This document shows positions 10,245 through 12,766 of a stretch of 64,000 bases of DNA, one piece after another (the stretch's first letter is position 1; each line of letters starts with the position of its first letter). A program made the translations under genes and the position numbers. The notes beneath the pieces were generated by a model. That model had not been told where the DNA came from and made no database searches. It saw nothing but the letters and a program-made list of their open reading frames with translations. The stretch is from an uncultured Verrucomicrobiota bacterium (GTDB taxonomy: Bacteria > Auribacterota > JABMQX01): positions 64,661 through 128,660 of the forward strand of contig CAYZXL010000006.1 in assembly GCA_964482435.1 (NCBI GenBank), in the 5' to 3' direction.

Positions 10245-11753
10245 TCAGGCTGCCTGCTCGGCGCCAAGCGCTGCAAGACGAAGAATTTCCTCCTGATTTG
10301 TCTGCCGAGGGTCGAGCTCGCCGACAATCCGCCCCCGGCGCATGACGAGGATGCGGTCGCTCATTCCGAGGATTTCGGGGAGTTCCGACGAAATCATCAA
10401 AATCGCCGCTCCCATTCGGGTCAGTTCGACGAAGAGCTCGAACACATCTCTCTTTGCAGCGATGTCTATCCCCCTGGTCGGTTCGTCGAAAACGATGACC
10501 TTTGACTGAGCAAAAAGCCACTTGGCGATGGCAACCTTTTGCTGATTGCCGCCGCTCAGCCGCAAGACTTTTTGGCGAATCGAGGGCGTCACAACTCTCA
10601 AACGGGTAACGTATTGCCGCGCGACTTCTTTCTCACGGCGAAGGTCAATCTTTCCGAAGGAAACAAGTTTCTTCAAATTGGAAAGACTAATATTGGACGA
10701 GACGTCAAGCCCCAGAGCAAGTCCGGTAACCTTCCTGTCTTCTGTCAGATAGCCCATGCCCGCGGCGATCGCCCTCGCCGGAGAAACCTGATGGATTTCC
10801 TTCCCCAGGACGAAGATTTTCCCCAAATCTATCCTGTCGAGGCCGAAGATCGCTCTTGCCAGCTCGGTCCGGCCAGCCCCGACGAGACCGGCCACTCCGA
10901 GGATTTCACCGGCCTGGAGCCTGAACGAGATGTCGTGCAGAACGCCCGCCCGCGAAAGGTGCTCGACCCGCACAATCTCCTCTCCAATCCTACCTTCTTT
11001 CTTCGGGAACATCGCCGAGAGCTCTCGCCCGACCATGTGCCGAATAATCTCCGACATCGGCATGGATGCGAAGGGGGCGGTGATAATTTTCTCTCCGTCG
11101 CGGAGGATGGTGATGCGGTCAGCCACCTCGTGCAACTCCTCGAGACGATGGGAGATATATATAACGCTCACCCCCTTCGCCCTCAAACGATGAATGACCC
11201 GGAAAAACTCTTCCGCTTCTTTCGCCGAGAGGCAGGACGTCGGCTCGTCCATGATGATGACCTCGCTTTCAGCGGCTAAGGCCCTGGCAATCTCGACGAG
11301 CTGTCGCTGCGCGATCCGGAGACGAAGCACAGTCGCAGAGGGATCAAGGTCGAAGTGGTTTTCATCCAGAAGCTGCTTCCCCTGTCGAAACAGGGACCGG
11401 CGGTCAATGACCCCGAGCTTCTTCTGGCGGAGCGGCTCGCGTCCGAGGTAGAGATTCTCAGCGACGGTCAGGTGCTGGGCGAGGGTCAGCTCCTGGTGAA
11501 CCATGGCGATGCCGAGGCGGAGAGAGGCGGTCGGCGAACTGACCTCAACGGGCTTTCCTTTCCAGACGATTTGCCCCGAATCGGCTGCGTGAATGCCCGC
11601 GAGTATTTTCATGAGGGTGGATTTCCCCGCCCCGTTCTCGCCGACGACAGCGTGCACTTCCCCTTTCATCAGGTCGAAGTCAACGTCCCGGAGGACGCGG
11701 ACCCCCGAGAACAACTTGTTGATTCCGAGCATCTGAAGAATCGGCTGGCTCAT
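10245..11753 (-). CDS. sugar ABC transporter ATP-binding protein with duplicated ATPase domains (RbsA-like)
   Basis: The protein is 502 aa and has two nucleotide-binding domains (GENGAGKSTLMKILAG…LSGGNQQKVAIAKWL…). There is a 4-bp overlap with the upstream binding-protein gene. Confidence 0.9.
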   Translation of the reverse strand: MSQPILQMLGINKLFSGVRVLRDVDFDLMKGEVHAVVGENGAGKSTLMKILAGIHAADSGQIVWKGKPVEVSSPTASLRLGIAMVHQELTLAQHLTVAENLYLGREPLRQKKLGVIDRRSLFRQGKQLLDENHFDLDPSATVLRLRIAQRQLVEIARALAAESEVIIMDEPTSCLSAKEAEEFFRVIHRLRAKGVSVIYISHRLEELHEVADRITILRDGEKIITAPFASMPMSEIIRHMVGRELSAMFPKKEGRIGEEIVRVEHLSRAGVLHDISFRLQAGEILGVAGLVGAGRTELARAIFGLDRIDLGKIFVLGKEIHQVSPARAIAAGMGYLTEDRKVTGLALGLDVSSNISLSNLKKLVSFGKIDLRREKEVARQYVTRLRVVTPSIRQKVLRLSGGNQQKVAIAKWLFAQSKVIVFDEPTRGIDIAAKRDVFELFVELTRMGAAILMISSELPEILGMSDRILVMRRGRIVGELDPRQTNQEEILRLAALGAEQAA

Positions 11754-12766
11754 CTGCGCTCGAGTATTTCCGCCATCCTCTCGGCGGCCATGACCCCACC
11801 CTGGTAGTTGTCAGTTGCGACGAAGGAGACGTATTGCCCAGTATCCGCACCAGAGTCGAAGATTGTCAGGGGAATTCCTTCTTTCGCCGCCCGCTCAATG
11901 TAAGGAACAAGGGCTTTCCGGTCCGTTGGCGCGAGAACAATCCCGTCAACTTTCTGGGTGATGAAGTCCTCGACAATCCGAACCTGCTCGGCGTAATCGG
12001 TCTCCGTCGTGGGCGCTTTCCAGAGCACCCTCGCGCCGAGGTCCAGCCCGGCGGCGATGGCCCCCGCGTGCACGGTCTGCCAGAAGATGTGCACCTGGCT
12101 CTTGGGGATGACCGCGATAACCTTCTTTCCCTCGCCGGAAGTGACTTCGCCCTCTCTCTGGAGGTATTTTTTGATGTCGGGATTGAGAAGCGACTGTATC
12201 TCCGGGGTGGCGATGTTGTCTCGCGTAATCAGCGTGGCTTTGGTGGCGATGTTTTTTGGAGGAGCTTTGCCGCTCAGTTTGTCAACGACGGTCTTCACGC
12301 CCTGGTAGCCTATGTTGAAAGGGTCCTGGACAACGAGCGAATCAATCGTCCTGTCCTTGACTCCTGCCTCGAGGCTGGGCGAGGAATCAAACCCGATGAG
12401 TTTGACTTTCCCGGCAAGTCCGCGCGCTCTGACCGCCTCGAGGGCGCCCACGGTGCTCGATTCGTTGGAGGCGAAAATGCCGTTGAGGTCCGGATTGGCG
12501 GTCAGAAGGTCCTCGGAGACGGCCAGCGACTTCGCCCGGTCGGACATGCCGTATCTGGAGTCCACCACGACCATCCTTGCGGAATACTTGTTCTTGACGG
12601 TGTTCATGAAGCCGTTTTCGCGCGCAGTCGTTGAAGCACTCCCCGGAACGACTTTAATCACCACAAGCTTCGCCTTTCCTTCCGCACCTTCTTTCTTGCG
12701 GCACCCGACCGTCGGCAGGACAAGCACGGCGAGAACGATGGCAATGAGAAAGCGCTTCATAAGCAA
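11750..12766 (-). CDS. periplasmic sugar-binding lipoprotein (Peripla_BP type I, RbsB-like); the halves are in circularly permuted order
   Basis: It has a lipoprotein signal, MKRFLIAIVLAVLVLPTVGC. Residues ~35-200 align with the C-terminal half of RbsB (…IGFDSSPSLEAGVKDRTIDSLVVQDPFNIGYQGVKTVVDKLSGK…). Residues ~215-338 align with the N-terminal half (KKVIAVIPKSQVHIFW…DGIVLAPTD…IPLTIFDSGA…ATDNYQGGVMAAERMAEIL). Confidence 0.85.
   Translation of the reverse strand: MLMKRFLIAIVLAVLVLPTVGCRKKEGAEGKAKLVVIKVVPGSASTTARENGFMNTVKNKYSARMVVVDSRYGMSDRAKSLAVSEDLLTANPDLNGIFASNESSTVGALEAVRARGLAGKVKLIGFDSSPSLEAGVKDRTIDSLVVQDPFNIGYQGVKTVVDKLSGKAPPKNIATKATLITRDNIATPEIQSLLNPDIKKYLQREGEVTSGEGKKVIAVIPKSQVHIFWQTVHAGAIAAGLDLGARVLWKAPTTETDYAEQVRIVEDFITQKVDGIVLAPTDRKALVPYIERAAKEGIPLTIFDSGADTGQYVSFVATDNYQGGVMAAERMAEILERR

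Follow-up and report, generated by a model that had tools for sequence, protein, structure and literature searches.

The window analysed here is a 64,000-nucleotide stretch of contig CAYZXL010000006.1 (GCA_964482435.1) from an uncultured Verrucomicrobiota bacterium, and the gene under study occupies positions 11750..12766 of its minus strand. The gene very probably encodes a functional, lipid-anchored receptor for monosaccharides, a type I protein (Cluster B, Peripla_BP_4) that serves an ATP-binding cassette (ABC) importer and whose chain has undergone circular permutation at the first hinge crossover. The half that ends a canonical protein of this type (the C-half) comes first in the chain and the half that begins it (the N-half) comes last, and this permuted order is itself a direct observation. 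A first-pass annotation of the window had proposed such a permutation, assigning the first ~165 mature residues to the C-half and the last ~120 to the N-half, and had suggested a search with the PF13407 profile, a structure prediction and an inspection of orthologues as checks.

Order of the Two Halves

Comparisons with Pfam, NCBIfam and the Protein Data Bank (PDB) all return non-collinear matches, in line with the proposed permutation. The PF13407 (Peripla_BP_4) profile recognizes the protein with 207.2 bits against a cutoff of 35.1, which places it in the family by profile, and the match falls into two non-collinear stretches, as had been predicted; in the best of these, positions 1-118 of the 258 in the profile are matched by residues 217-335. 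In a phmmer comparison with the PDB, residues 216-334 align with positions 6-123 of 4rxt_A and residues 31-199 with positions 132-299, where that chain ends, so that both assigned halves lie where the annotation had put them. The same two-piece pattern is seen against about 40 other type I sugar-binding proteins, E. coli RbsB (1urp/2dri) among them, and residues 30-181 match positions 147-294 of the 295 in the NCBIfam RbsB model. The E-values for the individual halves range from 1e-19 to 1e-36, and a chance match is therefore excluded. The canonical chain order of Peripla_BP_4, with the N-lobe segment first, is not found in the protein, which is best read from these alignments as a permuted derivative of the family and not as a canonical member. 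Nor does it appear to be an RbsB orthologue, as judged by the equivalog model NF007936 (116.3 bits against a cutoff of 337); the cutoffs of AlsB and other equivalogs are likewise missed. The same operon encodes a fused double ATPase and a BPD_transp_2 permease, the components of a CUT2-type importer.

The open reading frame (ORF) runs without interruption through 338 codons counted from a TTG, as annotated, although translation most likely begins at the ATG two codons downstream (M3, position 12760), because all 16 orthologues start at this ATG in the alignment. The true product is probably the 336-residue protein encoded by 11750..12760 on the minus strand, with its stop codon at 11750-11752. 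The residue numbers used here count from the TTG of the 338-codon frame, and all parts of the gene lie on the minus strand. A signal peptide and lipobox, MKRFLIAIVLAVLVLPTVG followed by Cys, can be read from the sequence at 12701..12760; G21 and C22 are invariant in the 17 permuted sequences, the motif reads L[ML][IM]GC in other members, and signal and lipobox are the same in canonical relatives, so a bacterial lipoprotein is predicted. The Lys/Gly-rich tether RKKEGAEGKAK (12668..12700) forms the first junction, which joins the mature N-terminal tail to the first C-lobe strand. The C-half follows as residues 34-202 (12161..12667), equivalent to canonical residues ~132-299, and includes the native C-terminal tail that ends in TPEIQSLLNPDIKKYL. 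The new inter-lobe linker QREGEVTSGEGKK, residues 203-215 (12122..12160), then leads from the native C-terminus to the native N-terminal strand. In the first-pass annotation the linker comprised both of these sequences; the ~13 residues of QREGEVTSGEGKK are indeed novel, whereas TPEIQSLLNPDIKKYL is native tail and is found in canonical relatives and in 4rxt. The N-half, VIAVIPKSQVHIFWQ...ATDNYQGGVMAAERMAEILERR, comprises residues 216-338 (11753..12121), corresponds to canonical residues ~6-123 and stops at the point from which the first hinge crossover would start.

Predicted Structure

The AlphaFold2 model, computed from the alignment of 17 sequences, has a mean predicted local distance difference test score (pLDDT) of 82.2 and a predicted template modeling score (pTM) of 0.77. 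The signal peptide and the linker are the only parts modelled with low confidence (pLDDT below 50 for residues 210-212, and 69 on average for the block 201-210), and pLDDT values in the C-half are mostly 85-95. This confident model predicts a two-lobed binding protein with a cleft between alpha/beta lobes. Canonical binding proteins can be fitted to it over one half only, at ~30% identity across ~150-170 residues, or alternatively over the full length at 9-17% identity, in which case the superposition is a pseudo-symmetric one of lobe upon lobe.

The best PDB match of the model is 5er3, a solute-binding protein of Rhodopirellula baltica SH1 deposited by structural genomics in 2015, which has the same C-then-N order. 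This structure is collinear across the C-to-N junction with the window protein and with two unrelated permuted proteins used as PDB queries (P0248 and P0214), and it thus seems to be a type I binding protein whose circular permutation had gone unrecognised; a literature search found no paper describing 5er3. The two proteins share only 26% identity, and the alignment offsets, which are coordinate ranges only, suggest that the termini of 5er3 lie some tens of residues from the cut in the window protein.

Conservation and Selection

A homologue search covering 5.8 billion proteins yielded 16 further 90%-identity clusters that are 72-98% identical to the window protein, are 335-337 residues long and share its order and junctions. 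Across the 17 permuted sequences the linker varies in length by no more than one residue, and the mean column identity of their alignment is 84%. The check on orthologues thus bears out the permuted order, and it also brought to light that the closest relatives in canonical order are orthologues as well. The carriers are metagenome-assembled genomes (MAGs) of uncultured Verrucomicrobiota.

Since the window is probably itself metagenome-derived, a chimeric or rearranged contig near position 12,200, with an order that no organism encodes, has to be considered. The exact window protein is on record on five contigs, and the three loci shown, with identical neighbours, were assembled from the separate runs ERR4334730, ERR4334733 and ERR4334734. 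The 16 diverged clusters with the same junctions come from JGI, ENA, NCBI and Logan assemblies, and individual members recur (P0011 on 19 contigs, P0016 on five). The ratio of nonsynonymous to synonymous substitution (dN/dS) is 0.05-0.14 among the permuted genes, with dS at 1-2.4 and near saturation, and a dN/dS of ~0.1 across such saturated lineages could not be produced by an artefact. Misassembly is thus effectively refuted.

The same ratios place the permuted gene under strong purifying selection in both halves, which argues against a rearranged relic that is non-functional while still in frame. The missed equivalog cutoffs would suit a relic. Opposed to this, R49, N101, D127, Q147, F228, W229, D319 and N320 are invariant in the 17-sequence alignment; R49, N101, D127, Q147, F228/W229 and D319/N320 align with the sugar contacts of RbsB, and are thus putative ligand contacts. 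Signal peptide and lipobox Cys are retained, as are the ribosome-binding site GAGGGAG (12769-12775, minus strand; present upstream of the gene in canonical and permuted loci) and the ATGA in which the stop codon overlaps the ATPase start; the gene is the only binding-protein gene of the operon, and the structure is predicted with confidence. A relic is accordingly very improbable, and the permutation appears, on this comparative evidence, to be genuine, conserved and functional.

Canonical-Order Orthologues and Origin of the Permutation

Canonical-order orthologues occupy the same syntenic slot in related uncultured Verrucomicrobiota. These are the next-best matches, P0017-P0021, which are 319-325 residues long (P0018 being called at 383) and 68-78% identical to the window protein by local alignment; after re-ordering of the halves in silico, identity to permuted proteins rises to as much as 89.5%. 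The canonical P0017 and the permuted P0011 are 87.8% identical in the N-half and 90.7% in the C-half. In both types the locus contains a beta-helix protein, mnmA and a divergent zinc-dependent alcohol dehydrogenase (Zn-ADH), followed by the binding protein, the ATPase and the permease, and the canonical relatives have a single binding-protein gene there. The length called for P0018 includes an N-terminal extension of 58 residues, and its start has probably been placed too far upstream. In one canonical-order MAG (L090:2787-4179, GCA_030669045.1) the Zn-ADH is split into two ORFs of 123 and 267 residues, possibly through a frameshift or as a pseudogene.

The three breakpoints can be read at codon level because parent and product differ by only ~10%, and all of them lie within Gly-Lys (GGN-AAR) runs. 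After the lipobox, the canonical sequence GCFGKKKGGE/K-VIAV corresponds to the permuted GCFGKRKGEE/GKTK-LVVI (slashes mark the cuts). The canonical mid-gene sequence EILGG K/GK-LVVI corresponds to the permuted gene end, EIL..K followed by the stop codon, and the ending EILGGK of P0006, P0009 and P0013 equals the canonical mid-junction cut after GGK. The canonical gene end KYLKK is continued in the permuted form by ~11 residues and then VIAV; this linker is absent from the canonical relatives. At the DNA level, the stop/start junction with the ATPase gene, AAATGAGCCAGCC, is identical in the canonical locus L007 and in the permuted loci L005, L001 and the window, where the ATGA overlap lies at 11750..11753 (minus strand). 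Translational coupling to the ATPase thus seems to have been kept after the loss of a second C-half.

Duplication followed by truncation is a textbook model of how circular permutations arise. Here, the mature coding region of the canonical orthologue would have been duplicated in tandem and in frame to give an N-C-N-C protein; microhomology-mediated deletions would then have taken away its first N-half and its last C-half and left the ATGA overlap intact. An origin by duplication and deletion is favoured because the junctions match what two deletions from N-C-N-C would leave, and self-duplication because both halves are nearest to one canonical orthologue, P0017; permutation by duplication gains further support because the wider family holds tandem N-C-N-C fusions and independent permutants. 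The annotation had likewise suggested tandem duplication followed by truncation at both ends, and the junctions, the shared parent P0017 and the fusions in the family fit that scenario.

Three points weigh against it. No N-C-N-C intermediate was found in this clade, nothing longer than 383 residues occurring among the close relatives listed. The source of the linker cannot be traced with confidence, since its length equals that of the canonical segment from the lipobox Gly to VIAV while the similarity is weak. Finally, some of the N-C-N-C proteins of the family, such as P0253, P0266 and P0170 with units that are 100% identical, could be assembler cycles and not genes. A duplicated lipobox segment, GCFGKKKGGEK, was considered as the origin of the linker; the length fits (11 residues after KYLKK), and the identity is too low to claim it.

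The two halves might instead derive from two different binding-protein genes, such as neighbouring paralogues, through fission and fusion. Precedent for the joining of unlike units is found in the N-C-N-C fusions P0135 and P0184, with units only 31% and 21% identical. However, both halves of P0011 have their nearest canonical relative in the same protein, P0017, there is one binding-protein gene only at the canonical loci, and no site was found that separates all permuted from all canonical in-group sequences. Fission and fusion is thus an improbable origin, and duplication of a single gene followed by deletion is preferred.

Distribution of the Two Orders among Lineages

The permuted and canonical forms are interleaved in gene trees. 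In neighbour-joining bootstraps with a canonical outgroup, the permuted forms are monophyletic in 0 of 200 replicates for each of three genes, those of binding protein, ATPase and ADH; the canonical P0017/P0018 group with the permuted P0011, P0012 and P0014 in 196 of 200 replicates, and the canonical P0019-P0021 group with the permuted P0016. Under maximum likelihood (ML), monophyly of the permuted forms costs a log-likelihood difference (delta lnL) of 31.3 (resampling of estimated log-likelihoods, RELL, 0.004; Kishino-Hasegawa, KH, p ~0.01), in a test with a crude model, namely a BLOSUM62-derived matrix with gamma rates and a nearest-neighbour-interchange search under each hypothesis. By partition, the C-half contributes a delta lnL of 30 and the ADH +7.3 in the same direction, and the N-half and the ATPase protein are uninformative, the latter leaning slightly and not significantly to monophyly (delta lnL -3.8). 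Parsimony requires 7 additional steps for monophyly on the binding protein alone, which is not significant (p = 0.11), and 15 on the binding protein, ATPase and ADH together (p = 0.044). At four-fold degenerate sites, the closest pairs join the canonical L007 to the permuted L005/L091 (0.41 in the ATPase, 0.42 in the ADH), whereas these loci lie 0.54-0.65 from the sub-lineage of the window. Long-branch attraction was considered as a cause of the interleaving; it is countered by these neutral-site distances and by the quartet distances, 10.5% between P0011 and P0017 as against ~22% between P0011 and the window protein.

The permuted linkers are of equal length, and the TCC codon of their central small residue is common to the window and L005. 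They thus look homologous, which favours a single origin of the permutation followed by reversion or exchange. In the first of these routes, some lineages would have reverted, as allowed by the retained microhomologies, which could regenerate EILGGKGKLVVI; in the second, the arrangement would have been exchanged between lineages, after which gene conversion would have homogenised the collinear halves. We tentatively suggest, at a confidence below even, that the chain order at this orthologous locus changed more than once in one of these ways, through duplication and deletion at the three Gly-Lys microhomologies.

Alternatively, the permutation may have occurred once and been inherited strictly vertically, in which case the permuted forms would be one clade and the interleaving would be noise in a star-like radiation. 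The junctions and linker length common to all permuted forms, the very short internal branches, the parsimony result on the binding protein alone and the slight preference of the ATPase protein for monophyly all agree with vertical descent. The complete lack of monophyly in the bootstraps of three genes, the ML cost of ~31 log units and the proximity of L007 to L005/L091 at four-fold sites speak against it, and we regard it as somewhat doubtful. Incomplete sorting of ancestral polymorphism is a strained alternative, given that synonymous sites are saturated between most lineages. Repeated change of the chain order, by reversion or exchange, is thus retained as the tentative preference.

The C-terminal triplets of the permuted proteins, GGK, ERK/ERR, EAK, GAK/DAK and QRK, are scattered over the sub-lineages and do not follow the tree; GGK ends P0006, P0009 and P0013, and ERK/ERR ends the window protein, P0001, P0002, P0011, P0012 and P0014. 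This scatter hints at recombination among lineages.

Domain Orders in the Wider Family

The chain order was classified in the best 150 clusters at 50% identity (149 in addition to the permuted cluster of the query itself) obtained when 1.84 billion cluster representatives were searched exhaustively with phmmer. The canonical N-C order is found in 118 of these clusters, tandem N-C-N-C fusion in 17, C-N order in eight apart from that of the query, and C-N-C order, with a cut ~30 to ~86 residues into the C-half, in three; a further three are fragments (CC, N or C). About 12 of the best 150 clusters are thus permuted (eight C-N, three C-N-C and that of the query), with at least four cut points among them. 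Each permuted cluster has canonical nearest relatives of its own, as in the pairs P0155-P0207 (69%) and P0167-P0252 (66%), which points to many independent permutation events. In P0124, P0153, P0183 and P0264 the cut lies ~30, 57 or 71-86 residues into the C-half and leaves the native N-to-C junction intact; P0124, which of these lies nearest to the subfamily of the window (~50-55% identity), represents a second permutation close by that arose independently.

The 17 fusions (P0121, P0133, P0135, P0137, P0138, P0162, P0164, P0170, P0173, P0177, P0184, P0206, P0212, P0234, P0253, P0266 and P0269) are 575-700 residues long and consist of two complete binding proteins in frame, with units that are 21-100% identical. 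Duplication, fusion and permutation have thus occurred repeatedly in the family. Several of the fusions have units that are 93-100% identical, which could have arisen by duplication very recently or else reflect assembler cycles through alleles that coexist. In an Acidobacteriales MAG (JAJFUV010000278.1, L050:6001-7469), a genome that represents its species, the match to the query spans 1,469 nucleotides, or ~490 residues, and probably marks a further binding protein of tandem-fused or extended form.

Genomic Context

The neighbouring genes of the operon lie on the minus strand. In permuted and canonical loci alike, the binding-protein gene is followed by that of the ABC transporter ATPase (10245..11753), whose 502 residues contain two fused ABC domains (PF00005 matched twice). 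The permease, with a BPD_transp_2 domain (PF02653, 156 bits) and 326 residues, is encoded at 9246..10226, and the last gene of the apparent operon, at 8354..9190, encodes a xylose-isomerase-like TIM-barrel protein (PF01261, 113 bits); a xylose-isomerase-like gene also lies downstream at locus L095. The Zn-ADH, which may act on alcohols or polyols (PF08240 and PF00107), is divergently encoded at 12919..13989 on the plus strand and serves as a syntenic marker. Between it and the binding-protein gene, the motif AAAAAAGAAATGAAAAC-N-TCTGCTAAACT (AAAAAAGGAATGAAATCC-N11-CTCTGnTAnACT; 12833..12871, minus strand) has columns that are invariant across eight permuted and canonical loci (window, L001, L002, L005, L007, L088, L089 and L091), and it is presumed to be promoter-like or operator-like.

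An ORF of 1,216 residues lies downstream of the operon, at 4352-8002 on the minus strand of the window. At L001 (12259-17011, GCA_974425575.1), a type VI secretion cluster (ImpA, VipA/VipB, Hcp, ImpE and a gp25-like protein) directly follows the permuted operon; this cluster is not present at the corresponding position of the window. The composition of the window shows nothing unusual.

Expected Function and Comparison with Known Systems

The protein is expected to be a lipid-anchored Venus-flytrap receptor that would pass a monosaccharide or a polyol on to the CUT2 importer encoded next to it. Its chain would run from the signal peptide and Cys through the C-lobe segment, the second N-lobe segment and the native C-terminal tail to the linker and the first N-lobe segment. 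Closure on a sugar between the two lobes would still be expected. The lipid tether of ~12 residues, previously on the N-lobe, would now be attached to the first C-lobe strand, and one of the three hinge strands would be replaced by the flexible linker that joins the native termini, leaving two native crossovers and a loose connection.

The canonical CUT2/Peripla_BP_4 proteins 4rxt, 4wut and E. coli RbsB have the same two-lobed fold and the same C-terminal tail (...NPxxK), and in canonical CUT2 systems, too, the operon supplies a fused double ATPase together with a BPD_transp_2 permease. The closest of the three, 4rxt (Agrobacterium radiobacter Arad_9553), belongs to the same family with an E-value of 1e-51 and ~38% identity per half. 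In contrast to all three, the chain of the window protein is swapped at the first hinge crossover and its lipid anchor would be on the C-lobe.

A natural permuted Type I/Cluster B protein is known in Treponema pallidum MglB-2 (Tp0684), for which the class "Type Ic/Cluster Bc" has been proposed (Brautigam et al. 2016, PMC4990184). In TpMglB-2 the first three N-lobe strands come last in the chain, which has both its termini in one lobe and crosses the hinge a fourth time; the protein binds glucose and closes normally on its ligand (PMC4990184), and such permutants can therefore work. TpMglB-2 is a lipoprotein, as the window protein is predicted to be, and like it a natural permutation of the Type I/Cluster B scaffold. 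However, its cut differs: in the window protein the whole first N-lobe segment moves and, to judge from the chain order, the crossovers would remain three, so that the cut inside the N-lobe sheet and the four crossovers that characterize Type Ic/Cluster Bc are not found. The permutation in the window is thus independent of the TpMglB-2 event and located at another site, while being an event of the same kind. TpMglB-2 is also without a known near-identical canonical orthologue, whereas the clade of the window has one. With TpMglB-2 (PMC4990184), 5er3 and about 12 of the best 150 clusters of the family in hand, the statement of the first-pass annotation that natural type I permutants are rare was too strong.

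Ribose-binding protein has been engineered into circular permutants and permuted halves, which show that the fold tolerates new termini and re-linked ends (Michel et al. 2023, PMC9815098; PMC10601554), and permuted binding proteins also serve in biosensors. All of these are laboratory-made, whereas the window protein is the product of a natural, selected gene with a natural linker.

Significance

Natural permutation of type I binding proteins was already known, and the particular value of the present case lies in a young event with matched canonical orthologues. To our knowledge, there are few natural cases in which a permuted gene and its unpermuted counterpart are still near-identical, orthologous and in synteny. 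The family further supplies tandem-fusion intermediates of all ages and permutants that are cut elsewhere. For biosensor design, the protein provides a scaffold resembling ribose-binding protein, with new termini at the hinge and a linker optimised by nature. Profile-based annotation labels such proteins as an ordinary "substrate-binding protein", thus masking the rearrangement. If the chain order has indeed changed more than once at this locus, the fold of type I binding proteins would be bistable in evolution, able to switch between two topologies, with the tandem fusions as the transition state.

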